DNA of 64,000 nt. Origin: Sphagnum compactum. Lineage: Eukaryota. Position 1 is the first letter of the stretch. Each line of letters starts with the position of its first letter. Shown here piece after piece: positions 3,101 through 64,000 of the stretch. Under the pieces are notes generated by a model. The model was not told the DNA's origin. It saw only the letters and a program-made list of their open reading frames with translations, and searched no databases. The position numbers and the translations under genes are program-made. Location of the stretch: assembly GCA_965153455.1 (NCBI GenBank), contig OZ234494.1, forward strand, positions 10,726,001-10,790,000, written 5' to 3'.

Positions 3101-5477
3101 GGTACTATCAATTCCTACTCGAATTTTGATTTTGAACACATGATTGACTCATTATAAGTTCTAATACATGTAACAACCTCCCTAAACATTTGAGAAATCC
3201 TTAAAGTGATCATATCTATGAGTCATCCTTTCACCCCCTACACCTTATGTTAATCTCAAACTCTATTTTTTTTAAGATGAAAGAATTTAATTGAATAAAA
3301 AATGGAACTAAATATCAAAATATTTAATGCACAAGGTTGGAAATAATTATGGAAAGAAGTAAGCCCACTAGTAATGAATGTGCTCAAGAACAAAAAGAAA
3401 GATAAGGTGAAATCAATTTATCACAAAATTAAATATAATTTGAATTTCACCTTGTCTTCATTCCTTGTTTAAATGCAATGATCTTTTTTACTATTTAAAA
3501 AAAAATTAACCCCCTTAATGACCGAATTCAATGTATTAATCCTATGTATTCTTCACTTTACGTATATCTCTATTCGTCACCATGTTTTAATTATGTTGTT
3601 AGTGTCATTTATAATTGCTATTGTGATTAATGAATTTTTTCTGGATGGAAACTTTTTGTCAAAGTTCAATGTAAAAAATATGATTTTGGTTTATACAAAA
3701 TAAATTTCATGAAATGAATCACCCAAAATTGCCAAATTTCAAATTTTATTTTTTCCAAATCATCAATTTTTGTGTGATAAGTTCCAACTACATGTAGCCA
3801 AGAATATAGAATTATCCTTAGATTGTCTTATTTTCATATCCAATTTATAGCCAAATTTAGCTAAATTGACTTATCGATGGTCACCACTTTGGTTACATCA
3901 CAAAATCCAAAAAAAATAAATCATTAATTCTGGTTGCAAATCAAAATCAAATAAAAAATTTCATGTTAATATGATTTTTTAAAATTAAACACAGGTGACA
4001 TAGCAACATTGACAATTGAGCAACTTGATTGGAAAACACGCATGAACATTGCTCTCAATGCAGCACAAGGTAAATGCTTCAACTCCAACATGATTATTGT
4101 TGAGTAACACACCTTTGCAAATTAATGTAATTTTATTTTAATAACTTGTTCTTTTGCATGGCAAATTTAAATTTTGGGCCTATCAAAATGAAACACGAAA
4201 CAATATATCATAAAGGAAAGTTTTTATTGGTAGTTATGTTTTCCTAACATATTTACATGGTAATATTTTTAAGACATTTAAATTTGGAATTTGCAGGCCT
4301 GGAATATCTACATTCAGGGAGCAATCAAAGCATTATTCATCGAGATGTTAAAAGCAGTAACATTTTACTTTCTAGTAATATGGAAATTGCAAAAGTTGCA
4401 GATTTTGGTCTATCAAGATTAATATATGGGGAAGATGATATTACTCATGTTACAACAAATGTCAAGGGAACTGCAGGGTATCTTGATCCAGAGTTCGTAC
4501 TTAACCACATATATTATATGGTCCAATTTATTGTAATGTGTGACATAGATTACAAAATCAATCGTTTGATGATTAAATATATGCACTTTACATGATTTCA
4601 TCTTGTAGAATGTAACTTGATAATTGCAAAATGTCATATTACATACTGCAATTTGCATTAACAATTAGTGTGCATGACTTTCCTCATTGATAGGTATTTT
4701 ACAACACGATGTTTATCACCAAAAAGTGATGTATATGGCTTTGGTGTTGTGCTTTTGGAAATAATATCTGGACGCATGCCTGTAGATCCAACATTGCCAG
4801 AACGCAATGCTTGGAATTTGTGTGAGTGGGTAAGTTATGAATTATAATCCTTTGAAGTTTTTAGAATTTTGATTTTATTTATATACCTTTACAAGTATGA
4901 TTTACAAACTATAATGAGAAAAGATGTATACAATATTAGACTTGTATGTTCTTGCTCTGTTGTTTCACCCAAGATATACTTGTATGTGTGCTACAAAATG
5001 GAATTAGGTGGGTATATCAATTATATACCTTAAATACTTGGTCCATGGAAACATTACACATGATGGTGATATAGACGTAAAATATCAAGTTTTAACCAAG
5101 CAACAATGAATGTCTATTGAACATCCACTTAAAAACCTTTTTGCAAATGATATCAAAAGGTTCAAATAATATGTGTATGTGTTGAATAGGTGCGATCCAA
5201 TCTTCAAGCAGGAAATATTGACAAGATTTTGGACCCTATTGTGAAAGCTTCAAATCCCCAACTTGATGCTTTATGGAAAGTTGCAGAAATTGCCATCCAA
5301 TGTGTGGAACCCAAATCTATTCATAGACCAACAATGACCAAGGTAGTTGAAGAATTACGGGCTGCACTCTTACAAGAAGGCTTGAACCCGACATTATCTG
5401 AATATTCACCAAATGATACATATGGAATTCAAGATCAATCTCGATTTCAAACAGATTCAACATTTGATCCTAGATGA
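124..5477 (+). CDS. LRR receptor-like Ser/Thr kinase (LRR-I-like), 3' portion; 5' exons lie upstream of the window
   Basis: GT-AG exons that join in frame: 124-195 (72-bp LRR exon [24 protein letters not shown]), 517-591 ([12 protein letters not shown]), 767-972 (TM helix [25 protein letters not shown] then QRKKR), 2194-2366 ([16 protein letters not shown]), 2975-3101 ([17 protein letters not shown]), 3995-4069 ([10 protein letters not shown]), 4297-4492 ([26 protein letters not shown]), 4694-4829 ([13 protein letters not shown]), 5190-5477 (RPTM, TGA). Catalytic residues intact (RD kinase). Confidence 0.93.
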
Positions 5478-38160: not shown

Positions 38161-38691
38161 AAGAAGCTGAGCATTGGTTGTTGTTGTTGCTGCTGCTGCT
38201 GCTGCTGCAGCAGTTGATGATGATGATGATGATGATCCATATAATTGCTGTAAAACCCACCAGCGAGCTTTGTTTGTGTAATAATTACAAAAAATAAATT
38301 AAAGTTATATACAAAAATTTATGGCCAACTGGAACACCATCCATCAATCAATCACATGAAGGAGCAACAACCCACTCCAAGAAACTGCAATCACCAGAAA
38401 GAAACACCAGAAAGAATTAGCTACTACAACTGCATACCAGAAGCAGCAGCAGCAGCAGTTATGGTACCTCATGCTGCAGCATCTGTGCCTGTTGCAGCAG
38501 CTTTCTGTTATTTTATTCTCGCTTCCAATGTAAAGAAAGAGTTGCAGTAGTAGTAGCAGCAGCTCTCTCTCTCTCTTGACAGCAGCTGCATGAGCTGCAA
38601 GACGTACATGAGTTTCTCACTCTAGTCTCGTGGATCATATTGGAGGATCTATGTTGATGATGTAGCTGGTGGGATCTGATCGTTTGCAGTG

Positions 38692-39243
38692 ATGTATCAG
38701 CTGCTTCTGTTGTTGTTGGAGATGATGATGATGAGGATGAGGATGATGATGGTCATCAACATGTGTGGAATGTTGGTTTTTTCTAGTGCTGGAGGAGCTG
38801 CTGCTGCTGCTGCTGCTGCAGGAGCTCAGGGAGGTGGCGGCGGTGTGGCGGATTTGGTGACGAGTTTGCCGGGACAACCAGCAGGCGTGGAGTTCAAGCA
38901 ATACGCGGGGTATGTGACGGTGAGTGAGGCGCATGGCAGGGCGCTGTTTTACTGGTTTGTGGAAGCTGATCACAAGGACGCTGCTTCCCTTCCTGTTGCA
39001 CTCTGGTTCAATGGAGGTGAGGAGAGAAAGAGTCGGAAGCGCAAGACTAGATCAGCTCACAACTGTCCCCAACACACACACACACACACACACATCTTCT
39101 GACCATCTTGAGAGAGAAAAGAAAAATCATCAGTCCCAGACACACATGAGAAGAAGAAGATCACACTCCCCAGACAGCTGCTCAGACTCCTGCTCTGTCC
39201 CACAGAGCTCAGTACCTGCAGAGAGAGTCCCACAGACACAGAG

Positions 39244-39274
<31 letters not shown>

Positions 39275-39719
39275 ACTTGAATCCAAGAGAGACTAGTCCC
39301 AGAGAACACGAGTTCTACTTGATCATGGGTTCTAGCTAGTGTTTGGTTTTGTATTGTACAATAGCTTCACAACTATAGATCTGTTTCTGCAGCACAACTT
39401 CTCCAGCTTAGGGACAGCTCCACAGAACTTGATCTGCGAAGTGTTTTCTGTTCAAGATGTAGAATTTTTTTTTCTTTTCGTGTTTTTTTTTTGGTGGCTT
39501 GATGCGTGGATGGGTGGGTCGGTGATGATGATGATCAATGTTGTTTGATTGTAAGCTGCTGCGTCACTGTGTGCAGGACCAGGATGCTCATCTGTAGGAG
39601 AAGGGTTTTTGCAAGAGCTTGGTCCCTTCTTTCCGAATGCAGATGGAACTGGACTTATTCGGAACAAGCAATCATGGAACAAATGTCCGTAACCTTCCTC
39701 TTCCTCCCATCTCCCAACT

Positions 39720-39765
<46 letters not shown>

Positions 39766-42700
39766 TTCAACAACACTCATTCCCCTTCTTCACTCTTTTT
39801 GTTTTGCAATTTCAATTGCAAATTTGTCCCCCCTACCCCCCCAGATGTCCAAGCTCTAGTTCTCTCTTGAATTCCTTCTTGTGTTTTTGCTCCAAATTCT
39901 TGTCATCTGTGGTTTTTTACACTATCAGAACTCTCCATCTTCTCAACAATTTTCCCTCTTCCTCTTTCAACAATTGAGTTTTAGCAACAATCTCCAACGC
40001 TCTCTCTCTCTCTCTCTCAGATTATTTTTTGTTTTTTGTTGTTGTTCCCAAACTAACCAACTCTCTTTCCCCAAATGCTTTGAAACTCAAACAATGTTTG
40101 TATAATCTTCCTGTTCCTACAGCACTCATCATCTCTTTTCTTCTCTTCTTCTTCTTCCTCTTCCTCTTCCTCTTCTTCCCAGCTCACTGCCTCTCCATCA
40201 TGTCTGGATTCATCTCTGTATGTCAGAAAAGCTTGAACTCCACCATTAGTCAGTTTTATTTCTGTCCTTAAATCTGAAACCAGGCATTAGGCAGCAAATA
40301 TCTTGAGAGAATTCTAAACTGCATTGAACAAGATTGCATTCTGAAGATCACCCACTCTGAAACTCACCCTTTTTCTTTCCATGAACGTATGTTTTGCATT
40401 CTGAACATCACCCATTTCATTTTTCCAATGGAAGTTTGTTTTGCATTCCAAGGTCACCCATTCTGAAGATCACCATTGTCTTTTTCTTCATGGAAGTTTG
40501 TTTAGCATTCTGAACATCACCCATTTCTTTTTCATCATGGAAGTTTGGTTTTGCATTCTGAAAATCACCTTCTTTTCTTCTTTTTTTTCCTTCAATGATG
40601 GAAATTCTGTTTTGCATTCTGAAGATCACCAGTTTGATTTGTTCTTCAATTGAAATTTGTCATGAATTTCACAATCACCAGCTTTTTTTTTCCTTTGCTT
40701 TTTCTTTCCCCCCAACTGAAGTTTGTTCTAGTGGGTTATCTTATTTGAGTGGTGGATTGATTGATTGTGCCATCAGATGCCAACATAGTTTTTGTGGAAT
40801 CACCAACAGCAGTTGGGTACTCATATTCAAACACAAGTTCAGATTATGAGCTTTTCACAGACAAATTAACAGGTACTGAATTTCTTTCCATCCTACCTTT
40901 TACAAATACTTCAAACCATTCCATTCCATTCATAGAATTACACTACTAATCTCTTCTATTACTCTCTAACTTCACTTAACAAATTCCTCACCAAACTTAT
41001 AAGAAACAAGAAGAAGGAAACCAAAAAAAAAAAGTCAATTTCTTTGGACTTCTTTGATGCGGGAATTGAGAAACTGTTGTTCAATAATTTCATACTCTCT
41101 GAGGGTTTCAATTGTGCTGGGTTTTTGCAGCTGAAGATAACCTTGCATTCATTCTTGGGTGGTATGTGAAATTTCCCGAGTACAAGAAAAATGAGTTGTA
41201 CTTAACCGGCGAAAGCTTTGCAGGTAATGTAGAAACAATTCCCTTTCATTTGTACATTACTTATTATTATTATTATTATTATGTGGATTATTATTTTTTA
41301 TTTCTCTTGGATTTAGTTATAATTGTTGGTCTCTCCTTTTTCTTTTTCTTTTTTCTTCACTTGGTAGTTTTGGGTGGCGCGTCTCTTGGTGGGAGAGGCC
41401 AGGCCACTATTTACCGGAGCTTGCCCAACAAATAGTGCTTTACAATGAGAAACCTGGAGACTTCAAAATCAATTTCAAAGGGTTTGCGGTATGAAAATCT
41501 ACTTCCAACTTAATGGGTAGCAAAAGAAGACGCGGGTACCAGAATAACAATAGATTGGTGTATTAGGGTTTAAGGTGCTATGTAGGTCTATGTGCTTTGC
41601 AGTTGTTCCTAGAACACAAGGGAGAAGGAGGGTGTGTGGAGATGGTGAGAATTGAACTAAATCATAACAAATGATGAAAGATTGTGTTATTGTATGCAAA
41701 TTAGCCTTATAAATTTTGGTTTGTTAAGGCATTATTATTTTCACCCTTCCTTTGCACAAAATTTATGTATGTGTATACACTTAATGAGAAAAAACTTTTT
41801 TCTCTTTTCCTTTGGTGAAGTTAGTTTTTAATAACAGATCTTATATTCATTCAATTGTTTGGCTATCATTTTGTTGAATTTTAATTTTTTTTTCCTCCTT
41901 TTTAAATTAAGCATGATGAGTGTTGATTTTGTAGGTTGGAAATGCAGCGACAGATGCGTATTATGACAATCTTGGCGCTACTAATTTCTACTATTACCAT
42001 TCCCTCATCTCGGATCAGACATACGCCACATTGATTGAAAATTGCGACTTTGCACAAGATCTGCCAGTCGACTATTCATTACACAACGCGACGTGCAACG
42101 AAGCTGCAAATTACGCACTCAATGTCGAAATGAACGAGATTAACATTTACAACATATATGGCTTGAATTGTAATCCTCCGGCCAATACAACACGACCCAC
42201 CTTCACCAAGGTAAGTAAACCTTCAAAACTCATTTGTGAGAGCAAGGAATTTCTTCATCTTTTTTTCTCAAAAAAATTTTTTGAAATTTCTTTTTTCACA
42301 TTTTAGTGAGGGAAATATATATTTATTTATTTATTTGTGCCAAAATGATAATAATAAATATAATAATGGAGAAAATTTGATGTCTCTCTACTTGTGGATA
42401 AACTTTTACAGAGGGTGGGTATGATTCAATTAGCAGGCGTAAACCCTTGTGCCCCCGACAATGTAACACCGTATTTGAACACACCTGCCGTGAAGGCTGC
42501 CCTTCATGCCCGACAAGATATTCAGTGGGTAGAATGCAGGTTTGAGTTCTACATACTTTTGCGAAAAAATCATGTGTTTATTTTTTACTTAGTTTTTTGT
42601 GGAATAAAACTCCGCATAATTATTTCATTTTCTTATTAAAAAATTCCTGCCCTTTATATATATAAATATTTTTATTTATTTATTTTTCCTAGTTCTTTTT

Positions 42701-49853: not shown

Positions 49854-52800
49854 CATCAATACAAAAATGGGGTGCAATTCATTAGCTTAAATCACTATGG
49901 GACCTTAAAAGTGAAATAAGTTCACTACACCTTAATGATTTCACCTTGGTTAAAGTTATTTCATTATAAGGACACTATGTAAACATTCATTTTTGTTACT
50001 AGTTGACATAATTCATTATTATAATTTACTATGACAAATAAATTTATTTTTATGTTGTTGTTTTAAATACCCTAAGCTACTTTAGTTATTTTAATTTATA
50101 CTTTAAGTTATTATAAATTATTATAAACTTCATATTTTAAGTTATTATAAGTTATTTTATCCTAAGGTATAATAATTTAAGGTGGAACAACCTAAGGTAG
50201 AATAATCTAAAATGACCAATAATAACCTCTATAAAATAACCTAAAATAACCAAAAATGGCATATGGTAGGATAACTAATAATAGTTTAAACTAACTTGCA
50301 AAACAAAACTTAGAATAACCTTGAATAATCATGAATACCTTAAAATAGAATAACCAATAATAACTTACAATATAATAGCCAATAATAACCAAGATTCACC
50401 TATGATAAATAACCTAAAATTTAAAAAAACCTATGATAAATAAACCGACAATAATTAAGAATAACATACAATAAAATAACCAACAATAATTAATGATAAA
50501 ATAATCAACAATAACCTATGATAAATAACTTACAATAACCCATAATAATTCTTACAATAAATAATAACCCATGATAGAATAACCAATAATAATTTAACAT
50601 AAAATAACCAATATTTCCTAGTGATAACCACTAATAAAAAAAACCCATATTGCAACTTGTCCAAAATGATTAAAAGTGTTATTTGTGACTATTTTGGTAT
50701 ATTTTGGTGACCAAAATAATCACAAATGACACTTTTAATCACCTTGGACAATTTATAATATGGGATTTTTTTAGTAGTGAACCTACGATAAAACAATCAA
50801 TAATAATTTAATGTTAAATAGTTAGTAATAACCAATTATAACTTAATTTAAAATAACCAGTAATAGCTAACAATAATTTTTGATAGAATAACAAATAATA
50901 ATTTATGGTAAAATAACCAATATTAACCTATGATAAAGTATTCAAAAATAACCTAAAGTAAGATAACCTATCATAACCAATAATATCATACGATAAAATA
51001 ACCAATAATAGCTTATGGTAAATAATTTAGAATAACCAATTAATAACATATATAATAGCCAACAATAATTTACGATATAATAACCAACAATAGCCTATGG
51101 TAAAATAAGCTAGAATAACCAATAATAACTTACAATATAATAACAAAAAATAGTTTATAGTAAATAACCAATTATAGTCTAAGGTAAATAACATAAATTA
51201 ACCAATAATAGAATAACCAACAATAGCCAATGGTCAAATAATTTAGAATAGCCAACAATAAACTATGATAGAATAATCAGCCATAACCAATGGTAAAATA
51301 ATTTAAAATAGCCACAACACACTACGTGTCATGGATACAAAAAGAACTAAATTCCTAGATTTCCAAACCACATGAACGAAACAAGCCTAGTTCTAAATCC
51401 ATGTCATGGAATAAAAAAATCAAAAGCAAAAACGCGATGTGTGCACAATGTGAATGCAAAAGAACTTTATTACAAAAATATGACAAAAATACGTACCCAA
51501 AATTGGTGTTGAACAAATTGAAAGTAACGTGGGATTTCACCTCTATTTATACCCATTGTGCACTTAGCTCAAAAAAGTTTCTAAAAATTTCCAACCTACA
51601 TGTGACCTATGTGATCCATGTGCACCCATGTGTGGCCCATGTCCATCTATGTGGGGACTAATAGTGAACTATGAAGGTTCTAAGAATGAACTAAAAGTGA
51701 ATTGAGATTTAACTATGAATTAACTGAAAGTTAATTGGAAATGAACTAAGAATTCACTAAAAGTTAACTAGAAGTGAACTAAAAATAAATTGATAATACA
51801 TTGAAAGTTAATTATAAATGAAATGAAAATGAATTAAAGGATAACTACAAATGAACTAAAAATTAATTACAAATTAATTACAAATTAACTAAAAGCTAAC
51901 TAAGAATGAATTGAAACTAAATTAGGAATTCAATACAAATTAATTACATGTCATGGATGAACATTCATATGAATGAACTCCATGGTGTTATCATTTGTGA
52001 CATTACGATAAAATAAACAACAATAACCAATGGTAAAATAATTTAGAATAGTGAATAATAACTTATGATAAAATAACCAATGGTAATACAGTTTATAATA
52101 ATCAACAATAGCCTACAAAAATAACCATTAATAATTTATGATAATATAACTTATAATAATCAATAATAGCCTACAATATAATAGCCATTAATAGCCTATG
52201 GTAATATAACCTATGATAGCCTACAATAACCTATGTTGAAATAACGTGTAAAATAGCCAAAATGACATATGATAGAATAACCTAGAATAACCTATCATAA
52301 AATTGTCAAGAAATACCAAGAATAGCTTATTGTAAAATAACATATAATAATCAACAATGGCCTATGATAAAATAACGTAAAATAATCTATTGTAGAATAA
52401 TCAAGAATTGGCAAGAATAATCAATAGTTGTTAAAAATAGCCTAGGGTAAAAAAAAATGCATAATATATGTGATGACAAAATTCATTTAAATAATGATTC
52501 AATGGTTAAAGACATGTTTTTTTAACATGGAGGTGAAAGGAAGTGAAGGATTCAAACCTTCTCCCTTGCACCTTAGGTTAGTGGGCAAGGTGTTTAGGTG
52601 GGTTAGGTTCCTAGCTTAAGTTAAGTAGCTTAGTGAAGGTCCTTAAGTGTTTAACTTGGGTTCATAATTAACTATTAGTGAATTTATTATTGATGATTTA
52701 ACTATTGGTGAATTCAATTAGTTATTATTGAATTCACTTGTCTATAACAATTAGTTCCTATTTACTAAAAGGTTGTCCACTTTCATGATGACAAATTTGT

Positions 52801-54260: not shown

Positions 54261-54529
54261 ATAGTACATTTGTTTCCAATTCTATGCTTGCCCATAATTT
54301 AATTATCCTTGAATATAATTACACAACCCAAAAGAACCAGTCATAGTCACTATTAGATTGACAATAGTCACTAGACTTCAACCCAAAACATTCACTAGAT
54401 TTTAGTCATTGGAAGTATGTAATCACTAGATTTAAATAAATATAAATGTGGGAATTAAATTTTAGTGATTGGAATAGTCATTAAATTTCAATAATTGGAT
54501 TTCAAACATTAAATTCACAAGAAAAGAAG

Positions 54530-55830
54530 GCAAGAAGACCATCATGAGGGTTTGGATACCTTATTGAAGGTTAGGGTAGGTATGTTTCAGCTATAAAGAC
54601 TAGATCACATGTATAAGTGGTACATTTGGGTCTAGAAAAAACAAGAAAACCATCAAGAAGGCATGCAAACTTGAATGAAAGCTAACTTAGGTCTATTTCA
54701 ACAGAAAGATAACAACACATGTATAAGAAATGGATTCAAGTTCAAAAAAAAAAAAATTCTCAAGAGGGTTTTTCGACTTGAATTAAGGCTAGGGTAGGTC
54801 TATTTCAACTAAAAATATAACAACACATGTATAAGAAATGGATTTAGGTTCATTAAAAAACAAGAAGATCATCAAGAGGGTTTTTTGACTTGAATAAATG
54901 TTAGGGTAGGTCTATTTGAACTAAAAAGATAATGCTACACGTATAAGGGATGGATTCATGTTGATATATAAAAAAGAAAGGCCATAAGGAAGGGTTTACA
55001 AACCTTGTTGAATGTTAGGGCAGGTAGGTTAAGGTTGGTCTATTTCAATAAGAAGGACAACATCACTTATATAGGAGATGGATTCAAGTTCATAAAAGCA
55101 AGTAGACCATTAATTAATGAAGGTTAGGGTAGGTCTATTTTAGTTAAAAAATAATGACACATGCATAAGAGATGGATTTAAGTTTTTAAAAAACAAGAAG
55201 ACCATTAGGAAGGTTTGCAAACTTGAATATAGGCTACGATAGGTCTATTTTAGCCATAAAAAAACATAACAAGTATAATATATGAATTTTGCTTTAGAGA
55301 AAACAAGAGGATCGTTAGGAAGGTATGTAGGCATGAATGAAGGCTAGGGTAGGTTTGTTTCAACTAGAAAGACAAAATGTCACATGCATAAAAGATGGAG
55401 TCAAGTTTAGAAAAACAAGAAAAACATCAAAAAGGTTTCCACACTTAAATGAAGGTTAAAGTAGCTATATTTCAACTAGAAAGACAACATCAAATGTATT
55501 AAAGATGGATTTATCTTTTTAAACAAAACAAAAAGACCATAAGGAGGGTTTGTAGACCTTGTTGAATGTTAGGGTACTAATGTTTCAACCATAAAGACAA
55601 CATCAAATGGATAAATTTTTTTTTTGTAAGAGGTGGCTTCAAAAAAAAAACACAAGATCACCACTAAAAGGGTCTATAAACTTTAGTTAAGGTTTGTTTT
55701 AGTTTGACAATATGTTTTAATTTGTAATACACAACCAAAGGGGTAAGAGGAGGACTCAAAAAAGTGAAAAACAAAACCATCATAAGAGGGTTTACAAACT
55801 AGAAGTAAGGTTACATTCAAGTTTGATTTC
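54530..55830. repeat. ~112-bp tandem repeat, ~11-12 copies
   Basis: AGG(T/C)TAGGGTAGGTCTATTTCAACTA..ACACATGTATAAGAAATGGATT recurs near 54568, 54680, 54786, 54899, 55012, 55121, 55230, 55341, 55453 and 55567. Confidence 0.85.
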
Positions 55831-56118
55831 GTATCTAAATGCAATCATCATAACTATCACCATAATAATCATATGGGTAGAATAATGGGGGTTCAAAATG
55901 GTTTCCACGTACATTTCATTTCATATACAAAAAATTAGTTATTGAAATCATCTAACTTTAGTGAATCACTTACCATGACAAAAAATTGTAAACATTCCAA
56001 TTCAAGTTGTAATCAAAATTTAAGAGAATGTTTCCAAAGTTCATGTTTAACAATTGTGCAATGGTATAAATGTTTTTAACTTTCTCAATTTGAAGAATTC
56101 TTCACACAAGGTGGTATC

Positions 56119-56385
56119 TGTTATGGACCGACTACAAACAAGTGGAGAATTACAAGACAAGACAAGCTTTATTGATCCATCAACTGGTGTTGATCTGCTA
56201 AAGGGTTGTTCCCCAGACTATCTCCTTTTATAACCCTGAGCCATACTAGTCCCAAAATATCCTAGGCCATGATATTGCCAAAACTATCGCAAAATATCCT
56301 AGGCCATGATATTGCCAAAAGTATCCCAAAATATCCTAGGACATGACATTGCCAAAAGTATCCCAAAATATCCTAGGCCATGACA
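56119..56385 (-). repeat. 3' LTR (267 bp) with ~3.6 copies of a 37-bp U3 repeat
   Basis: Direct repeat of 61921-62187. Unit CCCAAAATATCCTAGGCCATGATATTGCCAAAAGTAT. Minus-strand TATAAAA and AATAAA present. Confidence 0.97.
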
Positions 56386-59300
56386 TTATCCTCTCCTCAA
56401 GCGACATCTTCTAGATGGAGCCGGTTTGTTAGGATATCGTTGGTGAAACCGATTAACTAAGTCTTGGGCATGAACTAGGTTTCCAGCAGGCTCCCAAGTA
56501 GCTTCAGAAGGAGGATAACCTCGCCAAAAGACAAGGTACAGGAGCTTTCCACGAATCTTCTTGGAGTCCAAGACCTCCTGAACTTCAAACTCTTCTTGGC
56601 CTTCAATTTCGACTGGAGCTGGGGGTTCTTGATGACGTTCTGGGATCGGGTTTTCATGATAGGGCTCAAGCAGGGAGACATGGAAAACATTGTGGATTTT
56701 GAACTGGGGTGGAAGCTCCAACTGGCAAGCCACTAGACCAACCAATTTGGCGATTTTGAAAGGTCCGAGGCGCTTGTAATCCAACTTGGCACATGGGCGA
56801 GTGGTAGCAATGTTCTTTCTGAGAAGCCAGACCTTGTCTCCAACCTTGAAGTTTGGATGGTCCTTGCGTCGGCGGTCTGCTTGCTTCTTTTGCCACTCCT
56901 GTGTTAGCTTGAGTTTTGCCATAAGGTTCTGTTGAACCTGTCCAAGCCTCGTGGCCCTTTCTTCAGCCGAGGGGTTTACGGAGTCTCCAGGAATTTCAAG
57001 GCTGAACCTGGGATGAAAACCGTAATTGGCAAAGAATGGACTGAACCCGGTCGATGCATGTGTTGTGTTATTATAAGCAAACTCTGCTTGAGATAGTAGG
57101 TCCAGCCAGTCGTCCTGTTGGTAGTTCACAGTGCAGCGAAGGTATTGCTCGAGTGTCTGGTTTGTCCGTTCGGTTTGTCCATCTGTCTCAGGGTGGAAAG
57201 CTGAAGATAGCCGAATGTCAACTCCAAGAAGCTCGAATAGACGATGCCAGAACTTGGATGCAAACTGAGGACCTCTGTCGGACACAATTTCCTCGGGGAG
57301 TCCATGCAGTCGGACGATCCCGTCCAGAATTAACTGAGCTGTCTCTTCTGCCGTGATTGACTTGGAACAAGGGGTGAAATGGGCCATTTTGGTGAGTCGA
57401 TCGACCACAACCAGTATTGAATTCTTGGTTCTGACAGTAGGGAGGTCCGTGATGAAGTCCATTGCAATAGATCCCCAAGGTCGGCTAGGAATCGACAGAG
57501 GCTGTAGGAGTCCAAACGGGCGATGCCTGGGAGCCTTGGATCGAGCACATGTATCACAAGACTTGACATACTCCCGTAGCATCTTGTTCATTTTGGGCCA
57601 CCAGTAAGTCCTTGACACTAGTTCGTGAGTCCGTGCCATTCCAAAGTGACCTGCCAGGGTGTTGTCGTGGCATTCCCTCAGGATTTTTAGGCGTATAGGT
57701 CCTTCGGGTACATAAATCAGGTTATTTCGAAGGAGAAGTCCGTCTTGCTGCTCAAATTGATCCAAGTCATCACGATTTGGGTTCCTTGGTCGTTCCTGGA
57801 GTTCCTTCTTGATGTTGGTAGCCCAGGTGTCTTCCTCAGTTGCTATCTTGATGTCCCTGACAAGGTATGAGTCTGGGAGGGTGTTGATTGTTGCTGCAAC
57901 TCGAAATTGCTTGGGGTTGAGTAAAGTCTGGTTCTGCTGGCCGTAGGCCTCATCCCCCGCTCGAAATTCATATTCTGAACGACGAGATAGCGCGTCAGCT
58001 TTCCCTTGCTGGGTGCCGGGTTGATACTGAATCTCAAAGTCGAAATCAGCTAGGAAGATAGACCAGCGTGCCTGGCGACGATTTAAGGTCCGAGTAGTTG
58101 TGAAATAAAGGAGATTCTTGTGATCTGTCAGAACTTGGACTCGATGTTGAGCTCCGGCAAGATACGGTCTCCATTGCTCGAATGCCGTGATGATTGCCAG
58201 GAGTTCCTTATCGTAGACCTGGTAGTTGATTTCGGCACTGGTTAACTTCCGTGAATAGAAAGCAACTGGATGCAGCAACCCATCTATTCCAAATTGAAAT
58301 AGAATAGCTCCCAAGGCAAAATCTGAAGCGTCCGTTTCCACAATGAATGGCTTAGTAGGATCGGGATGTATCAGGATGGGTGCAGAGGTGAATGCCATCT
58401 TGAGAGTATCAAAAGCAACCTGGGCCGTTGGATTCCACGAGAAGGGCTTGTCTTTGCAAGTCAGGGTTATTAACGGTGTTGTGATCTTGGAATAGCCTTT
58501 GATAAACCGACGATAGAAGTTGGTAAACCCTAGGAAGCGTTGAACGTCCTTGACCGAGGATGGAGTAGCCCAACACTGGATGGTCTCGACCTTTGACTTG
58601 TCCATGAAAATGCCATCTGGAGAGATCACGTAGTCGAGGAACGCCACTGAAGATTTGTCGAATTCACATTTTTCCAACTTGGCGTATAAGCCATGCTCCT
58701 GCAGCGTCGCAAACACCAATCGTACATGTTTGTCGTGGGTTTCCTAGTCCTTGGAAAAGATTAAAATGTCATCCAAATAGACCACGACAAATTCGTCCAT
58801 GTAATCCCGGAAGATATCATTCATCAGATGCTGAAAGACTGCGGGTGCATTGGTGAGGCCGAAGGGCATGACCGTGTATTCGAAGTGGCCATAGCGTGTG
58901 CGGAAAGCTGTCTTCCATTCATCACCAAGGCGAATCCTGAGTAAGTTGTAGGCTCCACGGAGGTCAAGCTTGGTGAAGATCTTCCCGGTACGTAGTCGAT
59001 CTAGGAGACCTGAAATCAAGGGCAAAGGATATCGATTCTTTTTGGTTATCTTGTTGAGTCCACGATAATCCACACAAAGTCGAAGGGAGCCATCCTTCTT
59101 CTTGACAAACAAAATTGGGGCGCCGGCTGGAGACTTGGAATGCTGAATGAACCCCTTGGCAAGATTTTCAGTAAGGTAATCACGCAGGGCTTGGAGTTCC
59201 GGTTCCGATAGGCCATAGATAGGACCAAAGGGTGGTGACTGTCCTTCTTCTAGATCAATCGGGCAGTCATATGGACTATGGGCGGGGAGCTGATCAGCAT

Positions 59301-60144
59301 TAATCTTTTCAAAAACATCAACAAAGTCCTTGTACTTCTTGGGAAGTTTGACAGGTGTTGGTTCCGATTGGGGGTTTGTGGTGTTGGCTGGGTTGACATG
59401 GATGGCGAAGACTTGAAGATTCTTAGCAGCCCGATAGAAAGGGACAGCTCTATCAACGAAGATCTGGACAGGGTTGGTTTTTTGGGCAGAATTCTTGACA
59501 AGATTCTTGACAGGACAAGGTTTCGTTCTGACCAATCGGGGGTTCTTGACTGCAGGATTTGACATAACAGACTTGATAAAACTGGAATTGGTTCCGACCC
59601 TCTTTGGGTTCTCGACCACAGGGTTCTTGGCAGGACTGGACAAAGTGTTTTTCTGAGCGTGGGGTTCTTGAGAGGTGCATCGTTGTGCGCTGAAGGTGAG
59701 GGTTCTAGATCGCCAATCAATGATAGGGTTGTGTGCTTCTAGCCAAGGCAGACCAAGGATGATGGGATGGTGAGGGGTGGAAATGATGTTGAGAACAATC
59801 TTTTCCGTGTGCTTGCCGATACAGAGTTCTAGAGGGGTTGTCTCGTGTGTGATTGCACCAGAAGCAATGGTTCTCCCATCAATAACCTCTACCGGAACAG
59901 GGGTTGACTTCTTGACTACAGGGATGTTGTGTTGAACGACAAATGTTTGGTCGATGAAAGAAGAGGTGGCGCCGGAGTCCACCAAAGCTGACACTTGTGG
60001 TATGTCTTCTGGAATACGAATGATGTCCACATACTGAGTGAAACTGGGACTGGGACCAACAGCGGAACAGGAGCCTTTGCAAAGGTGGTGTTGGGTGAGA
60101 TCCAGTCGCACGGCTCCTACTGTGACTGGATGTTCTTGTTTTCC
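56386..60144 (-). pseudogene. pol: pol (aspartic protease, RT, RNase H, integrase, chromodomain) with one in-frame TAG at 58744-58746
   Basis: LVDSGA (PR); [30 protein letters not shown] (RT); ETDASDFALGA, DKELLAI (RH); H..GH..C..C, MDFI, SDRG, TERTN (INT); GPFKI; FEVQEVLDSK..YLVFWRGY..TWEP (chromodomain). The two ORF-track ORFs are in one frame, joined across FSKD*ETHDKHV. Confidence 0.95.
60068..60144 (-). promoter_or_regulatory. Predicted -1 programmed ribosomal frameshift signal (G_GAA_AAC plus H-type pseudoknot)
   Basis: pol is in the -1 frame relative to gag. Heptamer at 60144-60138, 6-nt spacer, stem 1 ATCCAGTCACA/TGCGACTGGAT (10/11), and loop AGGAGCC pairing with downstream GGCTCCT. 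Confidence 0.8.
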
Positions 60145-61091
60145 AACTCCTGGGGAGTTTTCACAGCTTGTACCTGAAGTTTGACAAGCTTTTGAGGGCA
60201 TTGACGAGCTATATGCCCTGGGTTGCCACAGTAAAGACATAGATTGTTTGTCCTTCGGCGAAGTTTCTCGGCTTTTGTCAAAGATTTAAACTTAGCTGTG
60301 TCGATCTGCATCGGAGCAGGTCCAAAAGAGGCAGGTCGGGCAACTGGTGTTGTTTGGGGAACTAAGGGGAGCGTAATAGGCCGACTGTTCCAAAGCTGGG
60401 CGTTGGAGGTGACTTTCTTTTCCTGGCGACGTTCGAACAGACGATTATCGCACCGAATTGCCTGGGTGATGGCTTCACTGAAGGAAGAAGGGTCTGCGAG
60501 TGTCAACAAAAGATCTTGAACATCATCACGAAGCCCATAGCGAAACTGATCAATCAAGGCAGCTTCTCCCCAATTGACGTCACAGGCAAGCTGCCTGAAT
60601 TCTGAAGCGTAGACGATGGCCGAACGTGTCCCTTGCTGGAGGCGACGCAGCTTGTTGGCTGAAGTCCTGGCCTTATCACTGTCCCCAAATACTGCTTCAA
60701 ATTCCGCCATAAAGGCGTTGAAATCTTGTAGAAGAGGGGATGATGTTTCCAGGATGGGAGCAAACCATGCTGCAGCTGTCCCAGTGAGTAGGGTTCCAAC
60801 GAATCCTACACGAGTGGTGTCATCAAAATAACGACGGGGGTGTAGTTGCATGATCAGGCGTACCTGGCTGACAAAGCCTCGAAATTTGAGGCGCGTTCCA
60901 TCAAACTTTTCTGGCAGACTGATCTTGGGTTCTTGGGCGGCCATTGCAAGAGCAGGAAGTACTGGGGCAGGAGGTGGTGGCTGATTCTATAGGCGGGTCA
61001 CCGAGTCTCTAAGCACGGCATTTTCTTGTTGAAGGTGTTGAAGGGCGGCGAGGATTTGAGTGAGATCGATGTTGGATTCTGAGTTGTCCAT
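60117..61091 (-). pseudogene. gag: gag (PEG10/Tf1-like capsid plus CCHC zinc knuckle) with in-frame TAG at codon 35
   Basis: ACCACCATGG start at 61091, MDNSESNIDLTQILAALQHLQQENAVLRDSVTRL*NQPPPP (TAG at 60987-60989), then [38 protein letters not shown], stop at 60117. Confidence 0.92.
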
Positions 61092-61130
61092 GGTGGTAGT
61101 TCTCACACTTTTGCGCTTTCAATCTTCAAA

Positions 61131-61780
61131 CTTGAAACTTCAGATGCTTGGATCTCTCTCAATACAAGTCCAAATGACATGAAATTTCTCTTACACATAT
61201 ATTCCTATATGATCTATAAGATCACAAAGTTACAGACCCAAAAACGTTTACACAAAGGAGATATGACCAAAAAACCAGATCTACACTTGAAACTTCAGAT
61301 GCTTGGATCTCTCTCAATACAAGTCCAAATGACATGAAATTTCTCTCACACATATATTCCTATATGATCTATAAGATCACAAAGTTACAGACCCAAAAAA
61401 GCTTACACAAAGGAGATATGACCAAAAAACCAGATCTGCACTTGAAACTTCAGATGCTTGGATCTCTCTCAATACAAGTCCAAATGACATGAAATTTCTC
61501 TCACACATATATTCCTATATGATCTATAAGATCACAAAGTTACAGACCCAAAAAAGCTTACACAAAGGAGATATGACCAAAAAACCAGATCTGCACTTGA
61601 AACTTCAGATGCTTGAATCTCTCTCAATAGAAGTCCAAATGACATGAAAGTTTTTTCACACATATATTCCTATATGATCTATAAGATCACAAAGTTACAG
61701 ACCCAAAAAAGCTTACACAAAGGAGATATGACCAAAAAACCAGATCTACACTTGAAACTTCAGATGCTTGGATCTCTTTC
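61131..61780. repeat. 155-bp tandem repeat (4 full copies plus a partial) in the retroelement 5' leader
   Basis: CTTGAAACTTCAGATGCTTG starts at 61131, 61286, 61441, 61596 and 61751; copies near-identical. Confidence 0.95.
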
Positions 61781-61908
61781 AAAACATATCCTTTTCTTTT
61801 GAAACTTTGAGAGTAGAAGCGTCCTATAGTCTTCTATAACCTTTCCAAGTTTCACTCCAATATACCTCTAGCTACTTACTGAAACAACATAACAAACAAA
61901 CAAGAAGG

Positions 61909-61920
61909 AGCAGATCAAAC
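61909..61920 (-). promoter_or_regulatory. Non-tRNA primer-binding site (predicted self-priming)
   Basis: The sequence right after the 5' LTR is GTTTGATCTGCT, with no TGG. Its TTGATCTGCT is the exact complement of AGCAGATCAA at 62001-61992 inside the LTR. Confidence 0.8.
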
Positions 61921-62187
61921 TGTTATGGACCGACTACAAACAAGTGGAGAATTACAAGATAAGACAAGCTTTATTGATCCATCAACTGGTGTTGATCTGC
62001 TAAAGGGTTGTTCCCCAGACTATCTCTTTTTATAACCCTGAGCCATACTAGTCCCAAAATATCCTAGGCCATGATATTGCCAAAACTATCGCAAAATATC
62101 CTAGGCCATGATATTGCCAAAAGTATCCCAAAATATCCTAGGACATGACATTGCCAAAAGTATCCCAAAATATCCTAGGCCATGACA
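61921..62187 (-). repeat. 5' LTR (267 bp)
   Basis: Direct repeat of 56119-56385. Minus-strand TATA starts at 62034. Followed by TSD GTATC. Confidence 0.97.
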
Positions 62188-64000
62188 GTATCGTTCATAA
62201 TTTAAACCAAATTTTGTTTACTTGACATAGATGTCATAACATCAAAATGTCCATGGGCAATTTAATGATGATATGTTCAATGACAAAAACAATCAGTGAG
62301 AGGAGGAGAATAAACAACCAAGGTTTTTACACAAATTTTTTAAAATTATGGGATTTGGGGTCTTGGGTTCTTCAAATTATGGTGTTGTTAATTTTTTTGG
62401 CTATGGTCAATAATGTGTTATGGGGTTGAAGGTTGTTGAAATCCAATTTCTTTAGGAGGTAGTTTTTTGTATTTTCTTCAAAGATGGGCAAGCCATGAAC
62501 TAATTAGGGCTTGTAGCATTTCACAAATATTTTAACACATAATTTTTTTTTAAACAAACATGAAAAATGACAACAACAAGATGAGAAATGTTTGTCGAAT
62601 GGCGAGTTCTTAAAAAATGACATTCATAAAAAAATAAATTCTTCCTAAGTAGCATTGGAATTAATGGATACGTGCACCATTTTTTAGGTAGAACTAAGTG
62701 TCACGTGAAGAAGGACCAACACGTCATTGTTGTTGTTGGTGCTTTTGCTTTAGATCACACCATAAACCATGCACTTGCACTACTCCAAGATGTTAGTAGT
62801 TATTTTTTTCTAATTCTTCTATGCTTTCCAAGATACATCTCAACCTTGGTTTGTGTCTTTTTAAGCTTTCAATTTGCACCTCACCAGCATTTATGATTTC
62901 AATCGTTTGTTCCTTTACACATGTTTCTCACCACATTTGTGATTCTTTCTAATTCTTGCACATTCCCTTCTATGCATTATGCTATGCATTTTGTGTTTTG
63001 AACTTTTCAATGCACTTGTGTTCATTGTTCACAATAGCTCATAAAAACAAAAAGAGGGCATTAAAGAAAAAAGAAAAACCTTTGCACCAGCTTTGTTTTT
63101 AGCACAAAAGGAAAATTTTGGCATGAAACTACTTTCATGTTGAGTTGTTGACAAAAAACCAATTTCAGCCCATCTTGGGGTCCTTTGTTTTTTTAATGTT
63201 GGGTTTGGAGTTACGACCTTCAAATTGGGCAAACATGGGCTTTTGGTGTTGTGTTTGTTCAATTTTACAAATATTTTTAATAACTTGAAAAGTGCATAAT
63301 GTGAAAGAACCTAACTATTTTCAACAAATGTAAAACATTGTCGCATTTTTTTTTGGGTATATTTGGATCCTTCATTGGGCTGAAAAAATCTTGTCAACAA
63401 CATTCTAGTGATATCACAGGAACATTAATTTACACAATTTGAAAAATAATTTTTAATTTATTAAAGTAACTTTTATCAGGTAAAGATTACCCACCAACTT
63501 GTCCCTCCTCACTATCCTTCTCACTGCAACGATGTCCTTATGCAACGATGTCCTTATGTAGTGTCACTGTCACGATGATGCTTTACATAAGAGAAGGGTC
63601 TATTAGCAAACCGTTCTGGATCTTCGAACCCCCCTTTGGCCTACCGACAACAAAGGGATTTCAAATCCGGAAAGGTTTGTTGATAGACCCTTTTCTAGGA
63701 TACATTTAATTCTTCCGCATAAAGCAACCTGAATTTTTGTAGAATAAGCATCGATGCCACTTTTTGTCATAGGTGAGGCATAGTGAAATGAGGCGTTTCC
63801 CTACAAAGACATCATTCCGCATTGGAAAAAGGCTTCAAGAGAGGTAGGTACTAGATACCTACTTGTAATTGGGAGTGTAGGCATGGATGCTACTTTTGTT
63901 AGAACCAATGCATAGTAAAATCAGGCATTTCCCTTGAAAGAAAGAGTGCATTCCACGCCGGAAAAAAGCCTCAAGAGGGGTAGGTACTAGGTACGTCCAT

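Follow-up and report, generated by a model that had tools for sequence, protein, structure and literature searches.

What primes the reverse transcription of an LTR retrotransposon that has no site for the 3' end of a tRNA beside its 5' LTR? The question is raised by an element found in a 64-kb window of moss DNA (the window being the whole stretch that was analysed), for which an earlier note proposed self-priming. To our knowledge, fission yeast is the only host in which self-primed reverse transcription has been demonstrated; in plants, self-priming of the Tcn1 and TAR lineages is so far predicted from database-scale surveys. In the fission-yeast element Tf1 it is the first 11 nt that anneal to the primer-binding site (PBS), with RNase H cleavage falling between nt 11 and 12 (PMC7175516). 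The evidence presented here makes it highly probable that the element in the window is a Tcn1-like chromovirus (Tf1/sushi group) of Sphagnum moss that inserted recently and whose reverse transcription is primed by its own RNA, as in Tf1. The locus is a clear-cut case from Sphagnum, a moss of ecological importance.

Structure and affiliation of the element

The minus strand carries a complete LTR retrotransposon of 6,069 bp, a Ty3/gypsy chromovirus, with the PBS under study at its 5' end; all features of the element given below are on this strand. A direct-repeat search and BLAST placed two LTRs of 267 nt, each bounded by TG...CA, at 61921-62187 (5' LTR) and 56119-56385 (3' LTR). Their boundaries were set by the LTR pair together with a 5-bp target-site duplication, GATAC, present at 62188-62192 in the 5' flank and at 56114-56118. 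The LTRs were 99.25% identical over 268 aligned nt (BLAST), and the two mismatches of the 3' LTR against the 5' LTR fall at the sites homologous to 62027 and 61960. A TATAAAA box occupies 62028-62034, and AATAAA at 61970-61975 is the likely poly(A) signal and would define where R ends. U3 of both LTRs (62052-62187 and 56245-56387) contains, upstream of the TATA box, 3.7-3.8 copies of a 37-nt tandem repeat, which may be a series of promoter or enhancer units.

From the PBS to gag stretches a leader of about 965 nt, which contains a tandem repeat with a 155-nt unit (61130-61894), present in 4.2 copies at 97% and one degenerate copy. The same unit was matched by contigs from RNA libraries, and it occurs once in the leader portion read of the sibling copy L010. 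The gag ORF (60117-60944) encodes 275 aa with the Pfam domains Retrotrans_gag and zf-CCHC. The pol region (56386-60240) is read in the -1 frame with respect to gag, overlaps it by 124 nt and encodes PR, RT, RNase H, integrase, SH3_Tf2-1 and a chromodomain. A single in-frame stop, at 58744-58746, divides it into two pieces; Pfam identified RVP_2 and RVT_1 in the first piece, and RT_RNaseH, Integrase_H2C2, rve, SH3_Tf2-1 and Chromo (E=2.5e-14) in the second. The order PR-RT-RNase H-integrase with a C-terminal chromodomain is that of Ty3/gypsy chromoviruses. Because of the stop in pol this copy, young as it is, cannot be autonomous. A polypurine tract, GAGGAGAGGATAA (56386-56398), adjoins the 3' LTR.

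The C-terminal 777 aa of Pol matched mainly metagenome proteins, at 50-63% identity. The best named relative came from a chytrid fungus (57% identity over 95% of the 777-aa query), and the nearest atlas clusters belonged to Basidiomycota and Mucoromycota. In the chromodomain (...EEFEVQEV...YLVFWRGY...) the three cage residues, as placed by eye, are F, W and Y, and the cage W and second Y were invariant in alignment A1. It is a group-I chromodomain with an aromatic cage, a hallmark of the Tcn1 clade; the account of Novikov et al. (2012, PMC3350952) gives the cage positions as Y24, W45 and Y48 and places the group-I domain in Tcn1-like elements of mosses and lycophytes. A moss is also the host here: a kinase exon at 4257-4595 encodes a sequence 96-99% identical to proteins of several Sphagnum species, which agrees with the host range of the Tcn1 clade. 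Of the sampled words of the element, 29-38% were present in each of six RNA runs, of which four bear the label 'moss metagenome' and the other two 'plant metagenome'. Since the chromodomain is of group-I type and the host is a moss, membership in the Tcn1 clade is indicated, and the sequence points to an element of this clade, the plant branch of the Tf1/sushi group.

Pairing between the LTR and the primer-binding site

The 5' LTR terminates in ...CCATAACA at 61921. Next comes GTTTGATCTGCT (61920-61909), which comprises a 2-nt spacer, GT (61919-61920), and the predicted PBS, TTGATCTGCT (61909-61918). A TGG was sought beside the 5' LTR and was absent, the terminal CA being followed by GTTTGATCTGCTCCTTCTTG; there is accordingly no PBS for a tRNA 3' end next to this LTR, as Tf1-type self-priming requires. 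Inside the LTR, AGCAGATCAACAC begins at 62001, 33 nt past the first T of the TATA box. The segment at 62001-61992, AGCAGATCAA, is the predicted self-primer and presumably forms the first 10 nt of the transcript, and the PBS is its exact reverse complement (10/10 pairs). The earlier note had described the missing TGG, the LTR segment starting 33 nt after the TATAAAA box and the perfect 10-nt complementarity, and all three were recovered on the minus-strand read.

An RNA taken to start at 62001 was folded and gave a structure of -23.8 kcal/mol (z = -1.97), in which the 5' end lies on the PBS and an inner stem is formed by 61986-61976 and 61931-61922. The ten primer-PBS pairs had predicted probabilities of 0.76-1.0 and the duplex amounted to about -14 kcal/mol. 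AC/GU pairs lengthen the helix past one bulged C, in agreement with the 12 nt with a one-base bulge described previously. The extended part of the helix begins with CACCAGT (61985-61991), located immediately 3' of the primer and forming the predicted cleavage boundary. In the fold prediction the inner stem resembles the retroviral U5-IR stem, with a 5' arm at 61976-61986 and a 3' arm at 61922-61931, at the end of U5.

A pairing of just 10 nt might be a chance match in an AT-rich LTR. The 10-mer occurs three times in the 64-kb window (in the PBS and once per LTR) against 0.22 expected, and one of 100 shuffles of the window also reached three occurrences. However, when 2,984 16-nt windows from the element interior were inspected, none had a complement of at least 10 nt in the LTR, and at seven 3' LTR/flank junctions used as a control only 1-3 of 10 positions pair. 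The same positions also pair in six other families in which the sequences are different, as described in the next section, so that coincidence is hardly a credible explanation.

In two DNA runs from two organisms the PBS (61909-61918) showed no substitution or deletion at 5% of depth or above, and the only primer variant in these runs was found in a single one of them, at 1.4%. A search of Rfam with 61000-62400 gave no match at E up to 1. No tRNA gene was found in the window, none by aragorn in the window plus 78 related loci, and none in a set of 33 loci.

Covariation of the primer and the primer-binding site in related elements

Metagenome contigs were scanned with the Pol alignment, which gave 78 loci. 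Four relatives (L008, L012, L015 and L056) had first been found by a search for complementary arms, and a census based on motifs only was used to lessen, without removing, the bias that this introduces. The first motif was CAACAC.AGT, which begins with the last three nucleotides of the primer, and the second was ACA, 2 nt and TT at the LTR end. The first motif occurred 25 times in the 78 loci and was accompanied by the second within 320 nt in nine cases. Six of these nine candidates (L008, L009, L012, L015, L019 and L056) have 9-12 contiguous Watson-Crick pairs; the pairing sequence differs in each of them and their Pol identity is 55-63%. The remaining three were L005 (8/10 pairs), L010 (PBS lost) and L007 (a 3' LTR followed by host flank), and the other 16 occurrences of the first motif represented 3' or solo LTRs, contig ends and chance hits.

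The covariation was analysed in an 8-row alignment, of which a 6-row version was also prepared. In the 8-row alignment 89.6% of the cells were paired in comparison to 61.1% (sd 3.3) after shuffling, with none of 500 shuffles as high; both sides had changed in 8 of the 12 pairs, and the covariation score was 0.708 versus 0.177. Sliding the partner by 1-3 columns left at most 47.9% of the cells paired. Compensatory changes between the primer and the PBS, which the earlier note had named as a check on its proposal, are present across the related elements, and L005 carries two compensatory double changes relative to the window copy. The six relatives keep the pairing by compensatory changes although their sequences differ, as self-priming predicts. 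Such covariation lifts what could be a coincidence in a single sequence to evidence of selection on the pairing.

The position of the pairing is conserved as well. In the seven elements with contiguous runs it begins 31-35 nt after TATA, and in six of them a pyrimidine|A step precedes it; judged from the sequence, both features fit a predicted start site of transcription. The spacer between the terminal CA of the LTR and the PBS is always 2 nt in these seven elements (GT in six, GA in one), and among the eight relatives it is GT in seven and GA in one. CAC.AGT is invariant in all eight aligned elements. RNAalifold, run without a hint, predicts the primer-PBS helix together with its extension, with compensated changes in 10 of 19 pairs, and pairs the conserved CACCAGT with the LTR end. 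The predicted U5-IR-like stem shows some covariation in the same analysis, its inner pairs being broken in one or two of six sequences.

Among close relatives (84-92% Pol identity) the primer 10-mer is unchanged in L001, L003 and L010, and variant 10-mers are present in L004, L005, L006 and L007. Only two of the close-relative loci, L005 and L010, extend to the PBS. Of the two, L005 is old, its LTRs being 87% alike; it carries AACAAACCAA in both LTRs and TTCGTTTGCT as the PBS, so that two of the three primer changes are compensated and 8 of 10 positions pair, with two mismatches. L010, the closest 5' sibling, has kept the primer, and a deletion of 8 nt has cost it the PBS. The longest ORFs in this copy measure 244, 120, 117, 275 and 102 aa, and no such deletion reached 5% in the two DNA runs; with its frames shattered in this way L010 is regarded as a decayed copy and no counter-example, and its use as a refuting sibling was rejected. 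The two mismatches in L005, the loss of the PBS in L010 and the stop in pol of the window copy were all counted against self-priming.

The hairpin ATCAAC/GTTGAT, which overlaps the primer and which the earlier note thought might act as a switch, does exist in the sequence and can form when the first 24 nt are taken alone (-5.3 kcal/mol). The proposed function did not stand: enforcing the hairpin in the longer RNA gives -15.8 versus -23.8 kcal/mol, a cost of 8 kcal/mol, the GTTGAT 3' arm is absent from L008, L012 and L015, and CACCAGT is engaged by RNAalifold with the LTR end. In L005 a T-to-C change disrupts the hairpin, yet it is compensated in the PBS. A conserved hairpin switch was rejected, as the arm is not conserved and the structure is energetically disfavoured.

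Covarying complements of the LTR and the PBS were also found in distant relatives (41-50% identity), for example over 13 nt in L025 and in the set of L048, L049 and L069. A second self-priming layout is common to L048, L049, L059, L060, L062, L063, L066, L069, L075, L076 and L078, all in the same identity range. In this layout the PBS starts with ATAATCTT..., 2 nt past the LTR, and its partner ...AAGATTAT lies about 88 nt before the LTR end (296 nt in L069); there is a bulged T, as judged by eye, and the distal half covaries between families. Two local rearrangements were seen as well. In L056 (1440-1510) the end of U5 is tandemly duplicated, ...GGTTCATGACAGTT occurring twice and the PBS following the second copy only, and in L016 (3040-3200) a 3' LTR of the L015/L016 family adjoins what appears by eye to be a Ty1/copia-type reverse transcriptase sequence, which looks like a nested insertion.

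A model of self-priming and its place among known systems

By retroviral rules the PBS must lie 2 nt after the CA of the LTR, and integrase removes the 2 nt after CA from the end of the linear cDNA. Minus-strand synthesis must therefore start after the 2-nt spacer, which is where the paired segment is located. The complementarity is observed, as are the place where it lies, its conservation and the way it covaries between families; from these we infer how the transcription start, the cleavage and the priming itself would proceed. Transcription would start about 33 nt after the TATA box of the LTR, near 62001, and the first 10 nt would loop back onto the PBS, which lies 2 nt past the 5' LTR, and anneal to it. 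The AC/GU pairs past the bulged C and the U5-IR-like stem would prolong this helix. RNase H of the element would then cut after ...TCAA, before the invariant CAC.AGT, and the freed 3' end would prime minus-strand synthesis through the GT spacer and U5. The proposal made for this locus, namely the lack of a tRNA-type PBS together with a PBS position that pairs with the LTR segment where a TATA-driven transcript is expected, is upheld by these data. The RNA data consisted of assembled contigs (three in run X15 and two in run X17), which leave 61870-61930 unspanned in X15 and 61870-61969 unspanned in X17. The contigs showed no pile-up of starts or ends, and they bear on the model in neither direction. 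A contig edge at 61948 is also present in a DNA run and is therefore uninformative on the poly(A) site.

Two other uses of the PBS region have to be weighed against the model. A host tRNA could bind to the PBS by an internal fragment or as a half-tRNA instead of its CCA end, and half-tRNA priming is known in plant Ty1/copia lineages (PMC6317226). In the account given there, however, half-tRNA priming was found only in Ty1/copia elements, and no TGG stands next to the LTR examined here. Moreover, the PBS varies by family together with its own LTR, for which a conserved tRNA cannot account; a primer that changes from family to family, each time fitting the LTR of the family concerned, can hardly be a tRNA. 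A tRNA fragment is thus very improbable, and the element's own RNA is the simplest primer.

The second alternative accepts the selection and assigns it elsewhere: the pairing would be maintained for cyclisation, packaging, dimerisation or translational control, with another primer serving reverse transcription. Covariation indeed shows selection on the pairing and not what the pairing does, and retroviral U5-leader and U5-IR stems surround the PBS (PMC3601003). Nevertheless, in seven of seven elements with contiguous runs the paired segment sits at the sole possible PBS position, 2 nt past CA, neither a TGG nor another candidate PBS is present beside the LTR, and the 5' partner begins, like that of Tf1, where the first transcribed nucleotide is predicted to be. 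This alternative is considered unlikely, though less so than a tRNA fragment, and priming by the element's own RNA is preferred.

In the aligned elements the primer always ends with CAA and is followed by CAC.AGT, which pairs across the bulged C with ACA-GT at the LTR end. It is conceivable, and we propose it tentatively as somewhat short of an even chance, that the primer-PBS duplex belongs to a fixed, sequence-specific cleavage module common to at least eight Tcn1-like elements. In that case the conserved motif, and not primer length alone, would set the RNase H site, because the contiguous runs vary from 9 to 12 nt.

The best-studied counterparts are Tf1 and Tf2 of Schizosaccharomyces pombe, and the likeness is drawn from the description of Tf1. 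Like the moss element, they have no tRNA PBS, and the PBS complements the start of their own mRNA, over 11 nt according to the Tf1 description and over 10 nt here from the predicted start (9-12 nt in the relatives). Both are Ty3/gypsy elements with an integrase chromodomain, and in the moss element a U5-IR-like stem is predicted beside the pairing. In contrast, cleavage and priming are experimental results in Tf1 and are deduced from sequence here; the host in the present study is a moss, and its element has gag and pol in different frames. Tj1 of Schizosaccharomyces japonicus resembles the window element in that self-priming was deduced from complementarity of the 5' LTR and the PBS and a cleavage site was proposed in the published description (PMC4600332), but the same description shows Tj1 to transpose whereas the window copy has a stop in pol.

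The plant Tcn1-clade elements, as described in PMC2864245 and PMC6317226, share with the window element the moss host, the group-I chromodomain, a fungal best named relative and the PBS type 'self', which is predicted for most of the clade. SM-Tcn1 of Selaginella also has separate gag and pol ORFs (PMC2864245); unlike in the Sphagnum element, where the signature is clear, the description by Novikova et al. (2010, PMC2864245) reports neither a tRNA PBS nor self-priming for it. Plant LTR elements of the TAR lineage (Houba, Osr-1) are likewise predicted to self-prime (PMC6317226), but they belong to the Ty1/copia superfamily and have no chromodomain, and they are set beside the window element by description.

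In the survey of Neumann et al. (2019, PMC6317226), tRNA PBSs are absent from most moss and club-moss elements of the Tcn1 clade, for which self-priming is predicted, in contrast to every other plant chromovirus clade. The novelty implied in the earlier note was for this reason overstated, as self-priming had already been predicted for moss elements of the clade. The main text of that survey contains no occurrence of the word Sphagnum, and a literature search returned, among the papers covered, no description of Sphagnum Tcn1 elements or of their priming. The present locus adds evidence of covariation and, at the predicted cleavage site, a conserved motif; the picture of how such elements work is unchanged, and self-priming is not extended to the seed-plant chromovirus clades.

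Activity of the family and surroundings of the element

The Sphagnum family looks recently active: 2 of 267 positions are mismatched between the LTRs, the target-site duplication is unbroken, the family is highly repeated in the DNA runs of two species and contigs of it are present in RNA libraries. If the family is active, Sphagnum could serve as a natural plant system for self-primed reverse transcription.

At 61960, 62027 and 61890 an alternative base makes up all the depth in both DNA runs, the window copy carrying a private base at each site. The changes at 61960 and 62027 look like ones acquired by the 5' LTR after insertion, since the family base is that of the 3' LTR. At 61978 an alternative base accounts for 75% and 97% of the depth in the two runs. 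The summed contig depth in these runs was about 10 times higher in U5 (61920-61960) than in the PBS and leader (61780-61919), and many contigs diverge at 61917-61921, which suggests that there are many solo LTRs or that the LTRs are common to other internal regions.

Elsewhere in the window, a receptor kinase of the malectin/LRR type is represented at 4257-5477 by exons that match Sphagnum proteins at 96-99% identity, and serine carboxypeptidase-like exons, recognised by eye and flanked by GA/CT microsatellites, were found at 38689-41435. Two degenerate tandem arrays (50310-52447 and 54523-55615) are located upstream of the element; the features noted in them are spacings that are multiples of about 25 nt and, at 62-80% identity, units of about 110 nt.
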